In this document: piece after piece, positions 3,041 through 54,267 of the stretch | How positions within the stretch are numbered: the first letter of the stretch is position 1 | Layout of the letters: every line of letters begins with the position of its first letter | Assembly (NCBI GenBank): GCA_964255285.1 | Contig: CAXUUL010000030.1 | Location: forward strand, 1 to 55,960 | Source of the DNA: Ionaspis alba | Taxonomy: Eukaryota | DNA length: 55,960 bases | Direction of reading: 5' to 3' | Position numbers and translations under genes: made by a program | The notes under the pieces: model-generated | What the model saw: the letters and a program-made list of their open reading frames with translations, nothing else | Told to the model about the DNA's origin: nothing | Database searches by the model: none

Positions 3041-5404
3041 ATGGTGTAAGTAATACAGAAGCTCCGGTGAAGGGGGTCTCGTGGACTGACAATCAATGTA
3101 GGCAATGGAAAAGACTCCTCGGCCTTGATGGAGATCGAGACAGCCACCATTTTCGCGAGCAGATGCGCCGCCGTAAGAGCCTTCGGGTGCATTTACAAAA
3201 GCCACAGCTAAGCTCGTCGTCCTGCAGTCTTGCCCACGTCCAATGGCGATAACATCGAGTCACCCTATCCTGCCGCCGAAGTGACCAAAGTGGCTCTCCG
3301 CCTCAAATACCAGATCGAGCAAGTGGTCCCTTGTGAGATGGAAGAGTTCAAGATCACGAAAGCCAATTCTCCTGTCATCACCCGCAAAGTGATACGGACA
3401 GCGCAAGAAGCTGGAGGGGAAGCATACAAGTCGTGCGTGGTCTACTGCTTGCTAGTCTGTAAGAGATGGTTCAAGCGGCAGGCGTCGTTGGAGTTGTGGG
3501 ATGCGGATCTGCATAACGTGCGGGCTGTAGCTTGCGAGGTTATGGCTAAGAGACTGTAAGGGCCTTCCAAGAACAGTTGAACGGTGCTTGATTAAGTGGT
3601 GATGTAGGATCGAGAATGAGGAGAGAGAGGACTATCTCATGCAGGAGACGCTGTTGAGACGGTACTCGATTATGATCAATGGGGAGGAGACAGAACCGGC
3701 GAACGTGATCGAGCGTATGTTGTACCCCTCAGATGATCCCCTGAGCGTTCGATTGACCAATCCCGATCTGTTCAGGCTCCGTTGATCTCCACGCCCTCCT
3801 CGTCATCGGTTCATCTGGCTATCAGAAGTGCATATCCTACCTCTGGCGCGGCTGGCTAGTCCAGGATGACATGGATCCCTCCAGCTTCATCGAGTTTAAG
3901 AAGAAAGCCAATGAAGAGTACTGGTCCCACTTCGATCCAGACCGCATGAGAGCGCCGATGTACCAGAATACGGTACAGATTTTCTTCAGCCTGCTGTATC
4001 TCGTTTTGTACACGGTTGCCATCAATACGATCAATTCTACTGGAGATCTGGACATCGTTGAGGGCATTTTGTACATTATGACCGCTGGGTTTATCTTCGA
4101 TGAGGTGGCGAAGTTCTGGAAAGGTATGTGTGTGATGCATTGGCATAATCTGAAGTCAAACTGATGCCTTTTTAGTTGGACGATATTATATTGGGTTCTG
4201 GAACGTATTCAATTGTAAGCTTTGAGCTCAAATTCTCGAGAGGTCGCAGCACTGACCGGTGGAAGCAACTCTCTACGCACTACTTACCGTCAGCTTCGTC
4301 ACTCGATTTATTGCTCTCAGTCACCCTACCGGCGACGAACAGCGACGCAAGTTCAATGAGTTTAGCTACAATTTCCTTGCTTTTAGCGCTCCGATGTTCT
4401 GGGCCCGTCTCCTTCTCTACCTCGACACCTTCCGCTTCTTCGGTGCTATGCTGGTGGTACTCAAGGTCATGATGAAAGAGTCTTTGATCTTCTTCGCGCT
4501 GCTGGTCGTGGTCTGTGTTGGTTTTCTCCAGGCGTTTATTGGGATGGACTCCGTGGACGACAACAATCCCGTCACACCGTTCATAATCCAGGCGATGGCA
4601 AATGCGGTTATGCAATCTCCAGATTTTGAGGGCTTCGATCAATTTGCTCCGCCTTTTGGCATTATCCTGTACTACATTTTTACCTTTGTGGTGATGGTCG
4701 GTATGTTGATCCTACATCCATGTCAAGCAGGCAACAGTCCTGAGACTTCTAGTGCTTTTGAATATACTTATTGCTCTGTTCAACTCTGCCTACGAGGACG
4801 TCACGTCAGCCTCGATTGATGAAGTAAGTAGCACAGCTTGAGAATTGATTGTGAGCTACCACTTTGCTGACAGTCCTACCAGTACATGGCCTTGTTCGCG
4901 ACCAAAACAATGCAATTTGTGCGAGCTCCAGATGAGAACGTTTTCATAGCACGTGAGCTACATACCATTTCCAAATTCGAATCCACAAGCTAAACAAGAC
5001 CAGCCTTCAACCTGATCGAGATCTTCTGCCTCATTCTTCCCTTTGAATGGTGGATGGAAAAGAAACGATACGAACGTATCAACAATTATGTCATGGGTAT
5101 CATCTATGCGCCGCTCCTCCTCATAACGGCATACATGGAAACCAGACAAGCGCACCTCATCGTCGAGAACAGGCGACGAGGTCAGAGTGACGATGACACT
5201 CTCGAAGAGTGGGAGCACACGTGGCCTCGTGGGCAGTCACTGGATTTCGAGGCAGATGGATGGACGAAGCGGGTGGAGAGCACAAAACCGAATGTTGAGA
5301 CTGATGCTGCTGTGCTGGAGATTAGAGAGCTGAAAGGGAAGATATCCGAGCTTGCGAAGTTGGTTCAAGCATTATCAGAGAGGTCGGTTGGGGAATCCAA
5401 ATAG
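3041..5404 (+). CDS. YVC1: Vacuolar TRP-family cation channel Yvc1/TRPY1, multi-exon
   Basis: Spliced frame MV|QWKRLLG.. uses introns 3046-3101, 3173-3227, 3556-3607 and further ones. It contains VALRLKYQIEQVVPC, SSGYQKCISYLWRGW, RMRAPMYQN, FFGAMLVVLKVMMKESLIFFALL, LLNILIALFNSAY and VRAPDENVFIAPFNLIE. Confidence 0.9.
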
Positions 5405-6342
5405 TTTGCATCATACCATTCTTGGAACTTCTCCTTCCTCATCATAGAACGCCGGAGCGAAATCTCTAGATTCTTCACCATTTCGTCGAAGCTGTTCTGA
5501 AAAGGCACAGAGTACTTCTCAATGCTCAACTGCCTGATGTACAAAACCAACTCATCCAGTCCCCTGATTTTTGCGAGAGCATCAACCCATACTCTTGTGT
5601 TAGCGTCCAGGTGGTACTCATTCTTGAGCATCGCCAAATGGTACGAAACCCGCGAGTCTAGCATGATCATGATACCCATGCTCTTCAAACGCAAGTGCTG
5701 TGCTATCGCTTCGATTGAGCTACCCAAATCAGGAATATGTAACTCATCAGCGGTCGAGTACAATTCCACGGTTAACCATACGTTGCAAATGCTAGCGATA
5801 GCCAGTGGTGTCCTGTCAGTCAGGAAGGGGATGACTGTTTCATGATTCGAGATATCGAAATTATTCTCGCCGTAGAATATTGGGACTGCTTCGGCTCGAA
5901 TCTGGTGGTTCACCAGAAGTATGTTAGGCGAAAAGTAATGATTTGGACGTAGGCTGCATAGTGAGAATCGCCTCATTTGATAGGTCGTCACCTCCCTCGT
6001 ACGGCGTGGTAGTAGCGGAAATATAGGAGGTCTGGTAAGATCGTACGTGCTTCGTCGGAGGGGTCGGGACTTCAATTGACTCCGCGCAACGAATTTATGA
6101 TGGGGCATGTTATCAATGCCAATATAAGTATCACGGCCTGCCAACAGAGCCAAGCGATAGATCATAATTCTGATCTCCACAGGCAGACTCATGAAAAGGA
6201 AGTGCGGTCTAGTCCTATTTGAGTCAATCAATAGTCACCCTGTAAGAAGTTGAATGATTTACTTGAAGAGGTTTCGGCGGGAGAGCTGGCGGCCACTTCG
6301 GGTCATCAGACAGTCGTCCGGTGCCTGTACGATATCGGACAT
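5365..6342 (-). CDS. Hypothetical protein with N-terminal F-box-like motif (2EXR/DUF7730-like)
   Basis: ATG 6342. A 48-nt intron 6262-6215 joins ..RRNLFK to TRPHFLFMSLPVEIRIMIYRLAL. Second typical motif: ILLVNHQIRAEAVPIFYGENNF. Confidence 0.7.
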
Positions 6343-42876: not shown

Positions 42877-44165
42877 CTAAACCCCCAGCGATTCTGATAT
42901 TGTTCGGTCCTCCTTCGCAATCACGTTCTGCTTCTGGCTAGCACGTTTCTTAAGCACGTTCTCTATGAACGCTTCACCTGCTTTATACGAACTTCTGACC
43001 AAGGGCCCACTAGCACAGTAGAGGAAGCCCATATCAAGAGCTCTGTCCCGCCATAGGTCGAAGGTAGCTGGGGTGACGTATTCGTGTACTCTCATGTGTT
43101 GTTTGGTCGGACGCATGTATTGTCCAAATGTTACAACATCGACATCAATCTTTCGCAATGCTGTGACTTGATCAGTGACGATATAGCCAAACGACCGAGC
43201 TTTCAGATCGTACCTTTCAATGTTTCCCAGAGCTGCTCCTCAGTCTCGCCCAGTCCTAGCATTATACTCGTCTTTGTGATCAATCGTCCCTGACTAGCTT
43301 TCTTCGCCTTGTCTAGAACTCTCAAGCTCTGTCGGAACCCAGCTCTTCGATCTCGAACCATCGGCGTCAGCTCCTCAACAGTCTCAACATTGTGCGCATA
43401 GACGTCCAATCCGCTTTGAGCAACACGCTCGACCATGTCTAGATCTCCAGCATAATCTCCAGTCAGAGCTTCCACAAGCATACTCGGCGCTTTCTGTTTT
43501 ATCTTCATGATCGTTTCCGCGAAGTGTGAAGCCCCTCCATCCGCCAAATCATCCCTGTCCACAGAGGTCAGAACGACATAACCTAGTCCCCATCTCGAAA
43601 GTGCTTCTGCGGTATGTTCTGGCTCATGAGGATCGAGTGGTGGAGGAGCACGAGACGTCTTGACAGAGCAGAAACGGCATCCTCGAGTGCAGGTGTCCCC
43701 CATCAGCATGATTGTGGCTGTTGCTGCAGCTTTGTCGTTTCCGCCCCAACAATCCGAGATGTTGGGACACCGTGCCTCTTCGCACACCGTATGCAGATTC
43801 AATCCCCGCAAGTCCGACTTGATCTTTTTGTAATTGGAGTTGTCCGGTATGGGAGTTTTGAGCCAGTCAGGGAGGCGTGTGATCTCTTTCTTCTTGCCTG
43901 CGGGGCCAACCAGGACGGTACGGAGTTCGAGGGCTTCTGAGGATGGGAGCTGTGAGGACGGAGTGGGAACAAAGGAAGAAAATGAGGGCCCACTATTCAG
44001 ACGATCTTGGAATGTTGTACGAGGTCGAGTAGTTGTTTGGTCCGTTGCTGATGGTTCGGAGGCAGCGGTGGCGAGTGTTCGGGAGATTGGCGAGACGAGA
44101 CCGTGGAAGGTATGCCTAGGAGATAAAGCGGAAATATACCGCAGTCTAGGAGCTTTCGTAGCCAT
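42877..44165 (-). CDS. LIP5: Mitochondrial lipoyl synthase (radical SAM)
   Basis: [41 protein letters not shown] and [12 protein letters not shown]. Intron 43213-43161. Confidence 0.96.
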
Positions 44166-44568
44166 TGCGGAGACGAGTAAAATATACGTGGAGGAGGGCG
44201 CCTGGACTGGAGTGAAACTAATTCCTCGAGATCCAACAGTAATTCAAATATGACGCTTTATGCGGGTGCGACTATTAACGGCTTTGGGGCTAGATCAGAA
44301 ATGGAAAGGTCAGCTCAATTGCTTTGAACCCTATCTCTTCCGCGCCTCCAAAACGCGATCAAACCTTGAGCTGTGACGATTCAACCTCTTATCACGAAGA
44401 CGTTCGCTTTCTATAGGGACAGAGCAGTATGATATATACACAACAGCAGCTTTGACTACGGATTGCCATCTAGTGTTCCTTCGCCTCCCCAACCACCCCA
44501 ATTCGTCAGTCGTTTTGCTTCCTGGTACCACGAGAGTCAACTCATTAGGAAGATGGCTTCCATGCCAA

Positions 44569-45455
44569 TTAGAAAGGCAGATTCATTTCTTCGACACCCG
44601 GTTCTTGCTCATTGATCTTACTCCCACTCTCGTCAAGACAGCTTTTGATGAATCCCACAGCGGTCTCTACCCAGATCTTTTGACTAGGCACAAAATGCCC
44701 TCCCGGATGCGTTATTGTCCTCTCTTCTGATTTCTCACAAGACCCGATCAACAGCTTCCCTCTCTGTTCATCCAACACAGTATCTAGACTTCCCACAAAA
44801 TGTAGCACAGGTGTCTTGATCTTCGGTTCGTAGAAGCCAGAGTAAAGGTCGAAAGGGGCAGCAAATCCGGAATAGATAATTGCAAATTTCAAAGGCGGCT
44901 GTATGGGCTCTTGGTTTCGTTTTACAAAGCACGAGGGATAGAGGAACTTTCCACTCTCCTTGGCTCCTGCTGCTTCGAAGCTTTGGCGTCTCCCGGTTTC
45001 AAGCAGAGCGGCCACCATTGCTGCAATTGCCCCGCCTTGCGAAAAACCTATGGCACCATCAAAAGGGCCCTCAGCTTGGATAGTCTCCGCGACTCGTTGC
45101 AGCCCTCGATCAATGCCTTGGTACACTGGAGCTCCCTCTTTTCGCTGCCACCAACCGAAAGCTTCTGCCTCCTCCGGGTTGGCGCCATTGGACATCTCAG
45201 AAGCACTGGATCCAGGAACATCACCTGGTCGAAGGGCGATAGGTCCAGTAGGATAGTGTAGCGTAGAGCAAGGAAAGGCCTTCATGAGACTCTTCTCTAG
45301 CGCTCGGGTCTTTGCATGGAAAAGCGTGCCAGATTGAGTGTAGCCTGATAAATATTGTATCAATAAGATCTGCAGCGAAAATTTCTGTGGAATAGTATGG
45401 AATGATTACCATGAAGCATCAGAATCTTCAACCCTCTGGCCTTTTCCGCGGACAT
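44569..45455 (-). CDS. FSH1/OVCA2-family serine hydrolase
   Basis: LKILMLHG|YTQSG (intron 45409-45345), GPFDGAIGFSQGG, HFVGSLD and HPGGHFVP. Confidence 0.9.
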
Positions 45456-45920
45456 TTTTGGTATACCAGAGTTGATTAAAGGTGACAAATCGCCTCTGGA
45501 GTCTATCTACAATGAAAACCCAGATGGAAGAGTGAGCTGGCCGCCGAAGTAGTGTTACAGTCTATAGTCAACGCCAGACACTCTATTGAATTTACAAACT
45601 CCGAGGAGTTCGCGAGTTTTCAACATGATTTATTCTTATAGTGCAATTGTTGCTTGCTAGTGGAGTATGAGACTGACGAAGGGGTGGTAGAACGGCAATA
45701 TACGAGTACACGAGGATATATCGGTGGTTCTGAACAATGGCCACTGAGTAGACCATTTGATATGGTTGTCTGACCTTCTATTGTTACGGAATTTCTAGAA
45801 CAGCGGTAGAGCCGTTACCCATCAGACCCCCTGTCTAGCTTGCTTGCCGTTATGGGCAGGCTGCCGGACTCTCGTCGTCAGCTTTACGTGGTAGAGCTCA
45901 TCGGACAATGATAGAGCACC

Positions 45921-46734
45921 TCAGTGTGACAGCACAGTTTCCAACATTTCCATAAATGTCCCATCCCTTTCGTCTGATCCTTCCCTTACATATCCAGAAA
46001 ACCAGGTAGATTTTGGGGAAGGCTCGATCAGGTTATCGCCATACATTGCAGAGATGGGGATTGTCCGAACGCTGCGCTCTAAGTCAATAATTTCGCACAT
46101 TTCCCGAAGGTTAACATACTGTTTTGAATCCACTCCCCTCATGCGCAACATTGTAGCTGTGTCCCCTACAATTCTGTGGAAACTATCCTCAGACCAGTCC
46201 AGCTTGTCCCTATATTCCAGGTTTGTGAGCGAATCATCACACCTCGTTAAGCACAATATAGATAACCTACATCTTATTGACTACCACAGTGAGATCTTTG
46301 GCACGCCTTAACGCTCCCTTGTCGGCAGCAGCATCTTGGTTCCTTCCACCTTCCTCTAGAGCCTGCAGAGGGATACTTGCATCTATGATGTAGATAACAT
46401 AATCGGCATCACCACTCACTGTGGTTGTGTCAGCTCGCTGAAAGACACGAAGCTTGGCAAATGACCTTACTATTGAGCTTAACGGTACATTTCCTAGATT
46501 GAAAAGTGAGTGGCACGCGACTCTCGTTGAAATATTCCACGACCTTGTCATAAGCGGCAACACCATCTTTCTGCATTTTCTCCAACATTAACATATCGAC
46601 TCCTCCACACTGATCATGTATCAGCCCGTAAGACGAGAACTGGTACTGATCACGATTACTTTGTACATCAAATTGCCCACAAATGTCCTCTTCCCTGCAC
46701 CGTCAGGTCCAATAACTCTGACAATTTTTGACAT
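45921..46734 (-). CDS. Stand-alone, divergent eEF1A/HBS1-like G-domain protein (~200 aa; probable pseudo-GTPase)
   Basis: Exons 46734-46660, 46609-46471, 46418-46271, 46209-46120 and 46071-45921 splice into an open 603-nt frame: MSKIVRVIGPDGAGKRTFVGNLMYKCGGVD..LEKMQK..ADYVIYIIDAS..LTVVVNKMDKLDWSEDSFHRIV..VRTIPISAMYGDNLIEPSPKSTWFSGY..GTFMEMLE. This is colinear with eEF1A domain I. Confidence 0.78.
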
Positions 46735-46873
46735 TGTATGCAGCAAAGAGCCAAAAGATCGAAGAATCGATATATTATATGTATATTGCCGTAAGTCATA
46801 TATCAAATATCTATGTAGGCGTATTGGCCTACTGATAGTTACCAGCTATACGAAATTTTAGACGAGGAGGCCC

Positions 46874-46882
46874 GTCACGTGA
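46874..46882. promoter_or_regulatory. Palindromic E-box (GTCACGTGA) in shared divergent promoter
   Basis: TCACGTGA at 46875-46882, between the two divergent ATGs (46734 and 47173). Confidence 0.3.
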
Positions 46883-47172
46883 GTAGGGCGGTAATTGCGC
46901 GCTAAACCTCATCAAACCCCGGCCAGCGCAGAAGGCTGATTTGTGTAACCCCAGGTCCATATTTTGGGGCAAATGACGGGCTGTGTACTGGCCCCTCAGT
47001 TGTTCGACGGTTTTCATGTGGTCCATGGGCGCCTATGGGCACTCAGCATTACCCCTCAAGTCAACGTTCCTTTTGATCCAACTCTGCTTCCACATTGATT
47101 GTATTTGCCCAGTTATTTGGGATCGTACTGTTTAACACTATCCTTGGTCCATAAATTTAGACAACGCACCAC

Positions 47173-50100
47173 ATGAAAAAACTTAGCAAGATTTTCCGGA
47201 AACCTCCGAAACAACAAACGCATGAAGAACAATATGGACTGTTTCCACTCATGGATGTAGTATCTGACAGCACTACCAACAATAATTACGAGGTCGATAT
47301 TGTCGCCATTCATGGACTCAATGGCGGTGCTCGGAAGACATGGACACACAAGAATGGCACTTTCTGGCTGCAAGAACTCCTCCCACAATCTATGCCTGGC
47401 GCAAGGATTTTCTCCTATGGGTATCCTTCTGAAGTATTCAATCAATCTGTGGCCGAGATTCGGGATTATGCTAAGCACCTGTTGAGCTCCCTGATGAATG
47501 CGCGACAAAGCGATGTGAGTGTTCTATAATTGTCGCGTTTTAAGTCCTTCTCATATATTATTTACAAGTTAAGGAACAACCACGTCCGATCATCTATGTT
47601 TGCCATAGCCTCGGAGGTATTGTGTTCAAACAAGTGTGTACAAAGCCGCCTAGAATCTAGAATCTTGTTACAGGAAACTCATGGACACAATAGGCAATGG
47701 TTATTGCACACAATTCGTCTCGTCGATTTCCGGAGATTGAACTATGGAGCAAAGGAGTGATATTCCTAGGCACTCCCCACCGAGGGAGTAGTTCTGCAAA
47801 TTGGGGGAAGCTTCTTGGGGATATTGGCAATGCTGCTTTCTACGCCTCAGGTAGTAGTGCGTTGGTCGGCAAATTCAAGACACCGCTACTTCAGAATCTG
47901 AGTCAAAACTCGGCCGAATTGCGCACTATTGCGGATTCTTTCACGGAACGAGGCAGTACGTTCTATATCGTCACATTCTACGAGACTGTTGCCACTCCTC
48001 CATTCAACAATCCTGTATGTTGTTTTCTTATAAATAGAACATATTCGACCTCTCGTAACCCGCTTATCTGACAATGGCTATTATTGATCTATGGATTGTG
48101 CTAAATTATTGTTAGATTGTTGGCGAAGACTCGGCTGTGATAGGATTTGCTCATGAAGAGTCCCTTCCATTGTACCTCAATCACCGGCAACTGTGCCAAT
48201 TCAAGGACAAGGATGATAAGAACTATGAGCAGGTCTCTTCAGCACTTAAACGTACTGCCAGAGCGATCTTGAACAACATGAATCGGCCGGCGTCCAGTCA
48301 AAACAGCGATAGATGTACGTAATTATTATCGATATTAATAAACCTCGAAACTAAATGTGCAAATAGCATTTAATGAAGCGGAAAAAGCTTGTATCGCCCT
48401 ATTGAACACAACAGACCTTGCAGAATTTGAGGCTGGCCTCAGCCCCCAAGCAGACGGAACACTACAATGGATCCTTAACGATCAGCAGTACACGAGCTGG
48501 GTTTCAAGCACGGAAGCTCGGCTTTTATGGGTTACCGGCTATCCTGGCTGTGGAAAAACCATTCTGGCATCTTATATTGTCCGTCATCTTGCGGAACGTT
48601 CCCAACCTGGAGTTATTACATGCCGTTTCTTCTGTGACAACAAAAGGGAGAAACATAGAGATGTCTGTGCTTTGTTACGAAGCTTAATTTATCAGATCAC
48701 AGCATGCCGCAGGGGGATGCTTAAACTGGTCAGAAGAGCCTGTGATTCTCAAGGCTTTCAGCTGTTCAATAGATTTGAAGCCCTTTGGAACCTGTTCTTA
48801 CAGATAGTACGCGACAAGAGAATTGGTTCGATCAATATCATCATTGACGCCATCGATGAGTGTGATCAGAACACACAGTTCACGATCATCGAGCGCATAG
48901 TTGAACTACTCAACGTCTGCGCTTCAACATCAGTCAAAGTTTGCATAACCAGTCGGCCAGTTAGAACTGTAACAGCCGCAATCCAGGGGTCTCAATCGCA
49001 GATTCTTCAGCTCCAACTTGAAGATATGCACGACGTCATTGGTCATGATGTGAATTTGGTGATTCGTCAGCGTATGAAAGAGCTAGTTCGAAAAGGCATA
49101 TGCAAGCCTTCCACCAGTGCTCATGTTGAGCAGGTTTTGGTTAGCAAGGCAGACCGGACGTTCCTTTGGGTGCATTTGGTACTTCCGCTTTTCGAGGGAC
49201 GTCGACTTCTACCTGATTCTGACGTAGAACGTCTCGCAGCAGAATTGCCGCCAGACCTTGCATCTGTCTACGAGAAGCTCCTCTACTCAATCCCCCTCGG
49301 TGACCGCATTCTAGCCGGGAAGATGTTGCGAGTTTTAGTGTCAAGTGCAAGGCCGTTGAACGGCACAGAACTGGGCATTCTCTTGTTCATTACCCCTGAG
49401 ACCCGCTCCACATCCTCGTTTGTGAAGGAAGAAATGTATGATCTTGAGGCAGCACAAACACTTTTAGGGCCATTAATCCGAGTGTCGGAGTCTCGCATCA
49501 GTCTTATTCACCAGTCTTTGAAAGAGTACCTTATCGATCTTTCCCACGATCAAGGAAATCCACTGGCCAGTGTATTTGGGGTGGATGTGCAACGTGATAC
49601 GCTTCTGCTCGCGTCTGCCTGCATGCAATACTTAGGGCTTGATGAATTCGACGAGAGTATTTTCTTATTGCACGAGTCCAGCGACGAGCTTTCCGTGTCT
49701 TCCAAAGAGCTAGAGTCAAACGATGAAACCTCCGTCATTTCTTTGAACTTGGGCAATGAACACATATTCAAGGAAGACTTCGTGATTGAATCAGAAACGT
49801 GCATCGCTACGGCCATTCGTTACGGGCTTTTCGATTATGCTGCGTTACATTGGGCTTCCCACTTTGCTCAAAGCAATATCATGGCTTCATTAGAGCAGCA
49901 CAAAGCTGCTATTGCCCTTTCAAGCTTTGGATCCAATCGCCTAACCAATTGGCTCCGCTACTTTTGGAGCATGAGCGATATATGCGAGCCATACCCTTCT
50001 GTGTTTGGCCCAGTAATAGTTGCGTCATTCTTTGGTCAGACTAAAACACTTCAAATACTCTTGGAGGATGAGCAATCTCAAGAAACCGAGACTCTCGAAC

Positions 50101-51218
50101 ATGCATTGTATTGGGCGGCTCGAGAGGGGCACGAAATTTGCACTCAAGTTTTGTGTGAGCAGAAAGATATCGATTCGAATGTCTGCTTGGTCAACAATCG
50201 GTCACCTCTAGCTATTGCAGCACAGCATGGCCATTTGAAGAGTGTGCAGAAACTGATAGAGTTCGATGGCACCGATGTCAATGTACGAGGCTACCACGGC
50301 AGAACGCCGCTTTCGCTTGCCGCCGCCAGCGGAAACACAGATATTGTTTCCATCCTCCTTGCCCATAAAAGGATTATACCTGATCTTGCAGATCGGGACA
50401 ATGAAACCCCTCTTTTCTGGGCACTAGGCGCAAATTCTTTGTCGGTCATATCTCAGCTACTCGCTGATGATCGGGTGAGCCCCAATCATCTCGACAAACG
50501 AGGTAGGAACATTTTATCCTGGGCTGCAGAAGATGGTTTAGTTGATCAGGTCATCCTTCTCCTCAAACACAAGCGGGTGGACGTGGCGAATAAGGATCTG
50601 AAAGGCCGCACGCCATTATCCTATGCAGCTCAGCACGGTCACTTGGACATTGTGAAACTGCTTACACGGAGTAAACGTGCTAGTGTGTCAGAGAGGGACA
50701 TCAACGGCCGCAATATTCTGTCTTGGGCTGCCTGTCAGAAAAATGCAGCCGTGCTGAGCTATCTTCTCAAGCACGACAGTACAGGGGCAGATGTCAGTGA
50801 TGACGACGGCTGGACTCCGCTTGCGTGGGCACTGGACCCGCCTGGATATCCAGACAACTTCTCTACTCTTGTACACTCTGGACTAGTTGATGTCAACCGG
50901 AAAGACCGAGTTCACGGCCGTGCCCCTTTGTCATGGGCTGCAAGCTATGGACATCTGCACATTGTTGATATACTGATCAATGCTGAAGGGATAGACCTAG
51001 ATACGAGAGATAATAGTGGCAGGACACCACTCTCGCATGCTGCAGGCAATGGGAACCTCGGCGTTGTGAGCAGATTGATTGCCACCAAAAAGGTGGACAA
51101 AGATTTTCAGGACTACAATGGCCGCACGCCTTCAAAGTGGGCTAGTCTCGAGCATCATGACGCAGTGGTGAAAGAATTGTCGTCACAGTCAGTTGTGGAG
51201 ATTGTCAATAAAGCGTGA
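47173..51218 (+). CDS. Fungal NLR-like protein: SesB-like alpha/beta hydrolase - NACHT - ankyrin repeats (~1257 aa)
   Basis: Exons 47173-47514, 47574-47633, 47694-48014, 48116-48314 and 48367-51218. Hydrolase motifs DIVAIHGLNG, CHSLGG, IFLGTPHRGS and NHRQLCQF. NACHT Walker A GYPGCGKT and Walker B IIIDAIDEC, plus FLWV and IHQSLKEYL. About 11 ankyrin repeats (GRTPLSxAA). Confidence 0.92.
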
Positions 51219-51472
51219 ATTTGGATCAGCAGAGCAATGAGAGACCATAAGCTCACGATTTTGGCAAGCTGGATATGTTCTGCCAGTGGGCTATATTACG
51301 ACCGTGACCATCTTTGGCAATGGCACGGCAAGCTGGATTGTATACATCAACGGAAAAAATTTGCTGGATTACTCGTGAAGTATCTAGAGGTAGAAACTAA
51401 GCCGAATCCGGTGGCGAGGCTGTTGCAACTCAATTCCAGCTCGTCTTGTTTCTGGTCCGCCGACTTTACGCT

Positions 51473-53081
51473 TTAGCTAGCTTTCTTCGTAGCATCCCTC
51501 TCGTTGTAAGGATGCTTGATCGACAGACACCAAATATCTAGATAATCGCATATCGTCGTGATAACATCATGCTGGGGAGTTATTAGCAAATCTAATTTAT
51601 AAAGGTATGCTCCATCTCAATGCCTTACCACAAAACTTCCGTAGACTCCGATCGCTAATCCAAGACAAGCAAACATAAAACCGATCTGATAAGTCCCATC
51701 TCCCAATACACTCGGCCACAGGCCAAGTCTCAAGCCAATACTGTCTACTACTGCTAAGGCCAGAGGTGCCGTCAAGATGTTCCAATATGGGAATTTAGGA
51801 CTCTTGGTAAGATGGGCGATGATGATCTGACCCACAGAGTAGGCATTGACAAGGCCGACGAAGAAAACAAATGGGATGAGGTGGAAGTGAAGAATGACCG
51901 GTTGCAGATAGAGGTACGATGCGACCAAGCCCCAGGTGGCAAAGCATGGAACCAGTCCAAGAAGAGGATTCTTCTGGTCCTTGGTGTGCGAAGCCGAGGA
52001 TTTCATGGAAGAAATGACGTTCATGGCGCTTGAAGGAGTGCCATCAGCTTCAGCTCTCGATCAAAAACGATAAGACATACCTTTGAACCGTGTTCATAAC
52101 TAGCACGACACCGCCATATACCATGTACCACTCGTTGAAGTGCAGCTCATAGATGTAGTCTGGAATCAGGCCATGCTTTGCAATGCCGAAGGTCTGGAGC
52201 ATCGATTGTTGCCAGAAGCTACCACCGCCCTTGATGGCGGTGATGGCGTACACAATGCAGAGGGTCAAGATGCCTTCCACAGGACCAGAAACGAGCCCGA
52301 GAGTCAGGGTCTGGGTATAATATTCGTCCCAGGTCTGGGTGTAGAAGGTGAGGGTAGCTGCAAGTGACATCAGCATGCATATCTTTTCCAATATTGCGGA
52401 GATTACACACCTCCAAAAAGTGTCAGGACAGTGTTCCAGCTTTGGCCGAGGTTCATAGCTGCCGCGAACAGTAGCACCTCTAGCACGGTATTGCAAGCGT
52501 CAACTCCTAAATACCTAGTTCAGCAACTTTTCTCAAGCATTCGCTTTGATATGTCTACCATGGTCGAAAAGCTCCCCTAGAGGTCCACTCTGATGTGTTC
52601 TCCGTCTACAAGTCTCGTCAACAGCTTTTTTTTGTCACACAATGTTCCCTAGCAACATACGCTTGTGTGCCATCCACTGCGTCAAAAGTCTGGTATAGAA
52701 ATAGGCCGATAGACCAAGTCGCATAAACCCATCTTGGCATATCCTGGTCAAGGGTTGGATTGTACCATAACAGGGTGAGGAAGTTGAGGACGACGAAGCT
52801 AAAGCCGGACAGTGTGATCTAGAAGTAGTTCAGAGACTGTTGTAATGCCTAGGTAATCGTTGTACACGTACGGCATTGGGGCTAATCGACGCCTCGTTAG
52901 CATATCGGCCGGCAGGAGGGAGCTTCCGTGATTGCACTTACGCCATCCATATAGGAAAGCACTTGATGACCACATTGGTATAGAATGGTTTGAGGACATA
53001 TCTCGAGACAAGAGAGTGATCAACTCCAGCGTATTTGTAGGGATGAAGACCAGCCAGGTCCTTTTGCCGTATGTAAACCAT
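51473..53081 (-). CDS. EPT1: Choline/ethanolamine phosphotransferase (CDP-alcohol phosphotransferase), intron-rich
   Basis: MVYIRQ..YKYAGVDHSLVSRYVLKPFY..WMA|PNA|ITLSGF..YQTFDAVDG..RRTHQSGPLGELFDHGVDACN..QTWDEY..SGPVEG..ICDYLDIWCLSIKHP. Includes a 10-nt microexon at 52881-52872. EPT1 versus CPT1 not resolved. Confidence 0.9.
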
Positions 53082-54267
53082 GTTGATACCCAATACAGCC
53101 ACTCAGCAAATTTTGGCCAAGTGCGCAATGGATATCGAGTGAATGAGGAAGTTGTTGACAATCTTCAACCTTCGAACCGAGAGTAAATCAGGGTTCGCGT
53201 AAAGCAGCCAAGAATGACGTACCATTTAAGGGACGCGTTAGCTTGGCTCTTCGAGACACGCTTCATGTTCATCTCTGCTGGTATCAACAGAGCATGCTCT
53301 TCTCAAGTCGCTTGACCTAGTCCTACAGTATCTGTTCTGCCTCTTTTACCTAGGCAGCGATTGTGATCCTTGATATTTCTGGTCATCGTGTACCTTAATA
53401 AAAAGAAATATACTCGTCAAGCTAGAGGGGAATTGCTCAAAGAAATATGATCTTGATATGACATGATATAGTCGAATAAGACATCCATGTTCTCCCTATA
53501 CATTCGTTCTTTACAGATCTTTCCTTGTTTCGTCGGGGCGAAGGAACCTTGTCGTTGTACTCTACCTTGTTTGCCTCACGCCTCGGGATTTCATCCCTCG
53601 GAAATTATATAACACTGGACATTTGAGACAGGTTGAACGGTTCTGACGAGAAACATAGATGACATGGATTCAGCATTCAATTTGAACTCCTGCACGTTGT
53701 CTCATTTCATTGACACCAGTATTGCCCAATGAGCTCATTCATCTCGCACTCAATCGTCTTAAAGGCTGCGACAAGTGGATCGATGCTACAGAAGAGGACA
53801 AGCTTTATAAATAGCTACGCACGGTGCGCAGAAAATATCTGGATACTTTCCCTGCGAGGATGAGTCAAAATGAATAGCCAGATGGTCTTGCGGAAGAGCA
53901 TCGAGAGGTTGTGGTCTTGGGCTGGGCGACCGGAAGGGGTATGCCAGTGCATTGATGTGCAGATGAACTGAAAGTACTGGAATATAGCTATGAGACTGAC
54001 AATTTTCTGGTGATGGTAGAGCGAAGCCATATGATTGATGCTGCGAGTGAGCCTGTGTACGAAAGCTGGACTCGAGAGTTAGGAAGCCAAGGGACCTTTG
54101 CAAGGAGAAGAATTTCCAGTAGAACGGAATTACTGGAGATCAGGATAGCGAGGACCGTCTCCCGTCAAAGCTCTTTCAACAGGATCTAAAGCTACTCTCG
54201 TCTGCCAGCGGTCCTCAATTCATGTCATTACCACCATTGCTATTATTTCCTAGCGACGTGAAGATAA

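Follow-up and report, generated by a model that had tools for sequence, protein, structure and literature searches.

A divergent eEF1A-like gene restricted to the G domain lies head-to-head with an NLR gene in Ionaspis alba

The stretch of Ionaspis alba DNA analyzed here (positions 1 to 55,960 of contig CAXUUL010000030.1, assembly GCA_964255285.1; all 55,960 nucleotides are referred to as the window) was found to carry two divergently oriented genes whose start codons, at 46734 on the minus strand and 47173 on the plus strand, are 438 bp apart (Table 1). The minus-strand gene encodes a short protein related to the G domain (domain I) of the translation elongation factor eEF1A, and the plus-strand gene encodes a NOD-like receptor (NLR). 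This arrangement had been given in a preliminary description of the sequence and was confirmed by the gene models.

Table 1. Coordinates of the two genes, their predicted domains and the nearest flanking genes within the window
Feature	Position	Strand	Basis
eEF1A-like G-domain-only gene	45921..46734	-	gene model, PDB match, alignment, tree, hidden Markov model (HMM) scores
Divergent intergenic spacer between both ATGs	46735..47172	.	438 bp; sequence read on both strands
NLR gene, 1257 amino acids	47173..51218	+	gene model and Pfam
Alpha/beta-hydrolase-like (SesB/DUF676-like) N-terminal putative effector region, exons 1-4	47173..48314	+	motifs and Atlas
NACHT/NPHP3_N nucleotide-binding domain	48456..49013	+	Pfam; Walker A GYPGCGKT
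Ankyrin repeats, Pfam best stretches, exon-5 residues 746-939	50604..51185	+	Pfam
FSH1-type serine hydrolase, main open reading frame (flank)	44569..45405	-	Pfam FSH1 2.3e-56
CPT1/EPT1-like CDP-alcohol phosphotransferase (flank)	51617..53164, limits approximate, several exons	-	PDB phmmer match

The eEF1A-like gene begins with an ATG at 46734 and ends with a TGA at 45923–45921, its coding sequence of 603 nucleotides (nt) being distributed over five exons (46734–46660, 46609–46471, 46418–46271, 46209–46120, and 46071–45921). The four introns measure 50, 52, 61, and 48 nt, all have GT-AG borders, and the frame is open throughout. The earlier view of this gene as intact, spliced and encoding an eEF1A-like G domain only is in agreement with this model of 200 codons, which ends at the border of domain I. 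The product of exons 4 and 5 was matched to residues 187–236 of eEF1A2 in a PDB sequence search (E = 1.9e-5), and the spliced protein aligned with residues 10–236 of canonical eEF1A at 27.8% identity (about 28–31% across comparisons), its stop codon falling two residues past the position aligned to eEF1A residue 236. Single exons gave no Pfam hits, exon 3 found nothing meaningful in the PDB sequence search, and a word-indexed protein search with the open reading frame (ORF) of the last exon found only the window's own ORF among sequences of similar length and nothing among longer ones.

Sequence shared with domain I of canonical eEF1A (TEF1) comprises the YKCGG(I/V)D, WSE, and IPIS..GDN stretches together with the NKxD and SAx motifs. 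The motifs for guanine recognition read NKMD (G4) and ISA (G5) in the window protein, in which WSE..F and IPISA..GDN..S..W are retained. The P-loop differs from that of eEF1A, reading GPDGAGKRT, with Arg instead of Ser/Thr after the Lys and no match to GxxxxGK[S/T]; it is this Ser/Thr that holds Mg2+. Alignment with canonical eEF1A further revealed that switch I (the GKGSF loop and ERERGITI) and DAPGHRDFIKNMITG (switch II with the catalytic His) are deleted, and domains II and III, by which aminoacyl-tRNA is bound, are absent. As judged from its sequence, the protein lacks the parts with which eEF1A cycles GTP and carries aminoacyl-tRNA, and it would be unable to act as a translation GTPase.

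A homology search with the 200-residue protein, as recommended in the preliminary description, was successful in finding relatives and not in finding a close orthologue. When the spliced protein was run by HMMER against 1.84 billion representatives, 12 hits reached E ≤ 0.001; several were short proteins ending at the same point as the window protein, and none was a close orthologue. Four long or repetitive hits (P0002, P0004, P0005, and P0008), with no or a bare match to the spliced protein, were discarded as spurious. A profile built from the hits was matched at E ≤ 0.001 by 419 of 3351 candidates; most of the proteins among the 120 matches listed are fragments of canonical eEF1A. Of 129 proteins compared among the matches listed, 34 scored higher on an HMM of the G-domain-only relatives (the family HMM) than on that of canonical eEF1A, and about 22 of the 34 have a clear margin between the two models and/or end at the domain I border.

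The family delineated in this way consists of G-domain-only proteins of about 150–210 amino acids. Its P-loop is GxxGAGKAT compared with the canonical GHVDSGKST, the Ser/Thr after the Lys being lost and Ala standing in its place; the regular expression GxxxxGK[ST] found no match at the P-loop site in family proteins carrying the N-terminus, and its match in the C-terminal fragment P0007 lies elsewhere. Both switch deletions were seen in the alignment in all members that cover the region, and a pattern search for DxPGH found none in the window protein or in family members. What is kept are NKxD (N, K, and D are invariant in family alignment A2), WSE..F, and IPIS(A/G)..GDN, and the stop codon is located a few residues past LLEALD, at the end of domain I. 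Pfam GTP_EFTU was matched by 12 of 13 family members. For one member, P0041, an AlphaFold model (mean pLDDT 70) placed yeast and mammalian eEF1A at the top of a fold search (E about 1e-13 and TMq 0.69–0.75 against eEF1A structures in the PDB), which suggests the same fold as domain I of eEF1A. Ski7, Hbs1, and eRF3, from the same translational-GTPase superfamily, ranked lower in that search; these paralogues, whose GTPase function is reduced or lost, retain domains II and III and work on ribosomes, whereas the family keeps domain I alone. An Atlas search with member P0057 returned generic GTP_EFTU clusters only.

Named members were identified in Pseudogymnoascus destructans (XP_024321952.1/ELR03274.1, GMDG_06022), Bisporella sp. 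PMI_857 (KAH8599519.1 and KAH8600559.1, on two scaffolds), Lepidopterella palustris (OCK76185.1), and a metagenome-assembled genome of Circinaria calcarea (KAL9121972.1), which are taken here to represent three classes of Pezizomycotina; further members come from environmental contigs. Occurrence is patchy among the named records, and the family is duplicated in Bisporella. The median pairwise identity within the family is 50%, with 37–44% to canonical eEF1A. The two Bisporella proteins (P0057 and P0129) fall into one 90%-identity cluster and are encoded on different scaffolds of 1.16 and 1.18 Mb, which points to duplication in the recent past or to a mobile setting.

Several full-length members are uninterrupted ORFs on JGI contigs of about 1 kb, and other genomic members are exon-sized ORFs only. 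Because the window gene has four introns and the genomic members appear as exon-sized ORFs, the 1-kb contigs are probably spliced transcripts. Two ORF-called genomic fragments (P0010 and P0011) contain an in-frame insertion exactly at the site of the window gene's intron 4 (46072–46119, 48 nt), which suggests that the position of this intron is common to the family and that its length is divisible by three in several members. A comparison of intron positions with canonical tef1 through such ORF-called fragments was too noisy and was dropped. P0012 (124 amino acids, on an ENA contig of 1344 bp) has two copies of the stretch …EPSPKGNWFS.QIREK, closer to EPSPKSTWFSGYVRE of the window protein than the corresponding stretch of other members, and P0012 possibly stems, as a duplicated fragment, from a sequence more closely related to the window copy. 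No description of the family was found in the portion of the literature returned by searches. These proteins apparently form a small, undescribed family derived from eEF1A, limited to the G domain and predicted to be dead in the nucleotide cycle.

The window protein shares with this family both deletions, the GAGK-type P-loop, and the stop at the domain I border. In a maximum-likelihood tree, 15 family rows including that of the window were separated from canonical eEF1A with support of 100/99, and the window protein scored 153 bits on the family HMM vs. 80.5 bits on the canonical HMM. It differs from the other members in being more divergent (28–46% identity to them, against a median of 50% within the family) and in the residue that follows the P-loop Lys, which is Arg where theirs is Ala. 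Besides this divergence, further observations weigh against membership: the G domains of canonical eEF1A score 128–164 bits on the family HMM, a range that brackets the 153 bits of the window protein; no other terminal branch in the tree is as long as that of the window protein (1.4 changes per site, the median being 0.14); and it matches 27 of 48 family-conserved columns, compared with 38 of 48 for canonical eEF1A. Because of the long branch and the low number of matched columns, the placement leans on the shared deletions and may have been helped by long-branch effects. It was nevertheless concluded that the window protein is in all likelihood a family member that has evolved unusually fast.

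The same long branch and loss of conserved columns would be expected if constraint on this family copy had been relaxed, the gene being without present function, in the course of turning into a pseudogene, and next to the NLR gene by chance. The change of the P-loop from GAGKAT to GAGKRT, the lack of a close orthologue in two very large protein collections, and the failure of single exons to hit Pfam fit this explanation as well. However, a neutral sequence so diverged would be expected to carry stops, frameshifts, or lost splice sites, and the window gene has an open frame of 200 codons over five exons with four canonical GT-AG introns, retains all of NKMD, WSE..F, and IPISA..GDN..S..W, and stops at the usual place of the family. 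It is also free of variants in the contigs of one sequencing run, in which the adjoining spacer is variable. Decay of the gene is therefore regarded as unlikely. Since the frame is open, the four introns are intact, and the core motifs are kept, the gene would appear to be still under selection to be made.

The NLR gene on the plus strand has its ATG at 47173 and a stop codon ending at 51218, with exons at 47173–47514, 47574–47633, 47694–48014, 48116–48314, and 48367–51218. Its four introns are of 59, 60, 101, and 52 nt, all GT-AG, and the product is 1257 amino acids long. In exon 5, Pfam identified NPHP3_N (5.7e-39, residues 30–196) and NACHT (1.1e-11, residues 51–215), followed by ankyrin repeats (Ank_2 5e-64, Ank 7.9e-50, Ank_3, Ank_4, and Ank_5); the Walker A motif GYPGCGKT is found at residue 365 of the protein. 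There are probably more ankyrin repeats upstream of the best Pfam stretches. No tandem DNA repeats were detected in the ankyrin region, and the repeats are therefore not highly similar to each other. A run contig differs from the window in this region, at 50982–50987, at three close positions (A>T, E>D, and one silent), either by polymorphism or by a difference in assembly.

Assignment of the N-terminal region was less direct. Its 300 residues are encoded by four exons, of which none had a Pfam match by itself, and two of them were also without a match in the PDB sequence search. By eye, the motifs HGLNG, CHSLGG, GTPHRG, GEDSA, and NHRQLCQF were recognized and a putative Ser-Asp-His triad was assigned; CHSLGG, at residue 124, resembles a nucleophile elbow in which the first Gly of GxSxG is Cys. 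These are motifs that we take to be those of SesB. An Atlas search with exon 1 gave ascomycete ‘alpha/beta hydrolase’ clusters (0.95) and leads to DUF676 (0.83–0.86). The preliminary description of a complete SesB-like hydrolase-NACHT-ankyrin NLR is thus supported by Pfam as regards the NACHT domain and the ankyrin repeats, and by the gene model as regards the intact frame, with the SesB label coming from motifs and an Atlas lead. The tripartite order is that of fungal SesB-like-NACHT-ankyrin NLRs, and SesB-like domains, at 13–14%, rank with the commonest N-terminal types in NLRs of ascomycetes according to passages of one survey (PMC9815663). Apart from the Cys in CHSLGG nothing unusual was noted, and the predicted domains of the plus-strand gene make it an ordinary NLR for a fungus.

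Allelic variation was read from the contigs of the single sequencing run mentioned above over 8 kb at the locus. This run contains a fraction of 0.98 of the sequence words sampled and may be the one from which the window itself was derived. Within the spacer, a patch at 46999–47080 (within 46969–47110) has 9 single-nucleotide polymorphisms (SNPs) in 82 bp, with two alleles at depths of about 80 vs. 43. A second patch, at 47945–48059, has 6 SNPs in 55 bp across the end of exon 3 and the start of intron 3 of the NLR gene (depths about 101 vs. 39), and the SNPs in NLR exons between the two haplotypes are synonymous in 3 of 3 cases. The remainder of the 8 kb, including the eEF1A-like gene, has no such two-allele variant. 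Gene conversion or old polymorphism could account for two such short, highly diverged patches between haplotypes that are identical elsewhere.

With regard to the surroundings of the pair, the genes named beforehand (LIP5 and FSH1 on one side, EPT1 on the other) were recovered. Lipoyl synthase (LIP5) on the FSH1 side was identified by Pfam LIAS_N and Radical_SAM, FSH1 by its own Pfam family, and the CPT1/EPT1-like gene by its match to cholinephosphotransferase 1 (PDB 8ul9, phmmer, E = 2.4e-8), its single exons being without Pfam hits. The remaining genes of the window are housekeeping genes as well, with Pfam matches to isocitrate/isopropylmalate dehydrogenase, P-type ATPase, glutaminyl-tRNA synthetase, Sec7, phospholipase D, and sirohaem synthase. 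Among them, at 5365–6234 on the minus strand, lies an ORF with weak matches (E about 1e-6) to 2EXR/DUF7730, a family that is confined to fungi and whose function is unknown. No direct or inverted repeats of ≥20 bp were found in 44000–53500, and there is therefore no sign of a mobile-element border. A second copy of either gene was not found at 80% likeness in the contigs of one sequencing run, which is a weak test. By a rough count from the strands of long ORFs, made without gene models, about 7 of about 20 neighbour pairs in the window are divergent; head-to-head orientation alone is common in the window.

The preliminary description went further and suggested that the eEF1A-like protein may serve as a decoy or guardee, sensed by the ankyrin domain of the NLR next to it. 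Under this proposal both genes would share the 438-bp spacer as a bidirectional promoter, and a parasite factor modifying or binding the eEF1A-like protein would trigger oligomerization of the NACHT domain and activate the hydrolase effector. The position of the genes, head-to-head with a short spacer between housekeeping genes, is consistent with such a module. So are the fast evolution of the family (seen in its identities within and to eEF1A), its few named species, the presence of two copies in Bisporella, and the exceptional branch length of the window copy, all of which are compatible with an arms-race gene.

Against this stands the fact that the pairing is known from a single locus, in a window where divergent pairs are common. 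The effectors and toxins cited in favor of the proposal do not help, as their sites on eEF1A are missing from the window protein: the loop with Ser53 (GKGSF), which we take to be the target of Lgt, is deleted, and the didemnin/ternatin pocket presumably lies between domains I and III, of which the latter is absent; other sites are possible. No motif shared by the two proteins was found by blastp of the spliced products (best E 0.93). A metagenome scan with the patterns NK[ML]Dx[IHS]xWSE and IP[IV]S[AG][LRT]xGDN yielded no family-like locus among the 80 matches listed, all being generic elongation factor homologues of 24–41% identity in which the family query never outscored canonical eEF1A; the scan thus yielded no genomic context for the family and bears on the proposal in neither direction. 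As for published surveys, GTP_EFTU, PF00009, or elongation factors did not occur among the Sordariales NLR annotations in supplement files 1–13 of PMC12258605, and the family accessions did not occur in the NLR-neighbour tables of 11 supplement files of PMC9815663 (files 1, 9, and 10 not among them), which concern NLRs with short N-termini. Passages of the latter paper make no mention of elongation factors or GTPases. As had been stated beforehand, no account of an eEF1A-like gene paired with an NLR was found in the parts of the literature that searches returned. Moreover, because the family is present in several fungal classes, the G-domain gene did not originate beside this NLR as a fragment. 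Taken as set out above, the decoy model is improbable.

Known systems offer partial parallels. As in linked NLR-partner systems, the window NLR adjoins a small gene, here a paralogue of a host protein and thus a possible bait, and such linked partners do exist in fungi, as in het-S/NWD2, where an amyloid motif is common to the N-terminus of the NLR and the C-terminus of its partner according to passages of PMC9815663. The window pair differs in having no shared motif (the best blastp match does not lie between those ends) and in that its NLR has a predicted enzymatic effector of its own. The arrangement also recalls the situation in plants. There, head-to-head pairs consist of two NLRs, sensor and helper, and guarded decoys are known as well; the pair described here differs in combining one NLR with an eEF1A-like gene. 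Among Sordariales, head-to-head NLR pairs are rare, with 13 of 225 two-NLR clusters, in the part of PMC12258605 that reports them. That the two genes form a functional pair of NLR and guardee is given a low probability. Just as doubtful is the combined reading in which the family as a whole consists of eEF1A domain I mimics deployed in conflicts with mycoviruses, bacteria, or other fungi and the fast-evolving window copy was recruited from it as NLR bait.

A weaker form of coupling is that both genes are co-regulated from a bidirectional promoter, for example by stress, and act in unrelated pathways. The shortness of the divergent spacer speaks for it; a promoter and terminator scan of the spacer found nothing, the scan being a bacterial one and of a type unsuited to fungi. 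Such co-regulation is considered unlikely.

Altogether, the locus is probably best explained by two real, intact, and separately explicable genes lying side by side, one a divergent member of a domain-I-only family and the other an ordinary NLR. The head-to-head position is a single observation and, on present evidence, is best read as neighbourhood without demonstrated coupling. The eEF1A-like protein would most likely imitate domain I of eEF1A without catalysis and bind some ligand of that surface, for which a regulator of the host and a factor from a parasite are both conceivable. If it behaves like others of its family, the NLR would sense a cue through its ankyrin repeats and oligomerize through NACHT, with the N-terminal hydrolase-like domain as the presumed effector.

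To our knowledge, the ligands of fungal NLRs are almost all unknown. If the adjacency proved to be recurrent, it would provide a rare and directly testable guard/decoy pair for these receptors, and the bait reading, if true, would be the first case in which a decoy of translation-factor origin accompanies an NLR in a fungus; without recurrence, the locus amounts to an ordinary NLR gene with an unusual small neighbour. With its scattered presence in named species, its rapid evolution, and its duplication, the family is a candidate for involvement in conflict or regulation. If real and functional, the family would constitute a further branch of the translational GTPase superfamily, consisting of domain I alone and without switches; as pseudo-GTPases, its members could plausibly have binding activities only. 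The interest of the locus lies mainly in this family.

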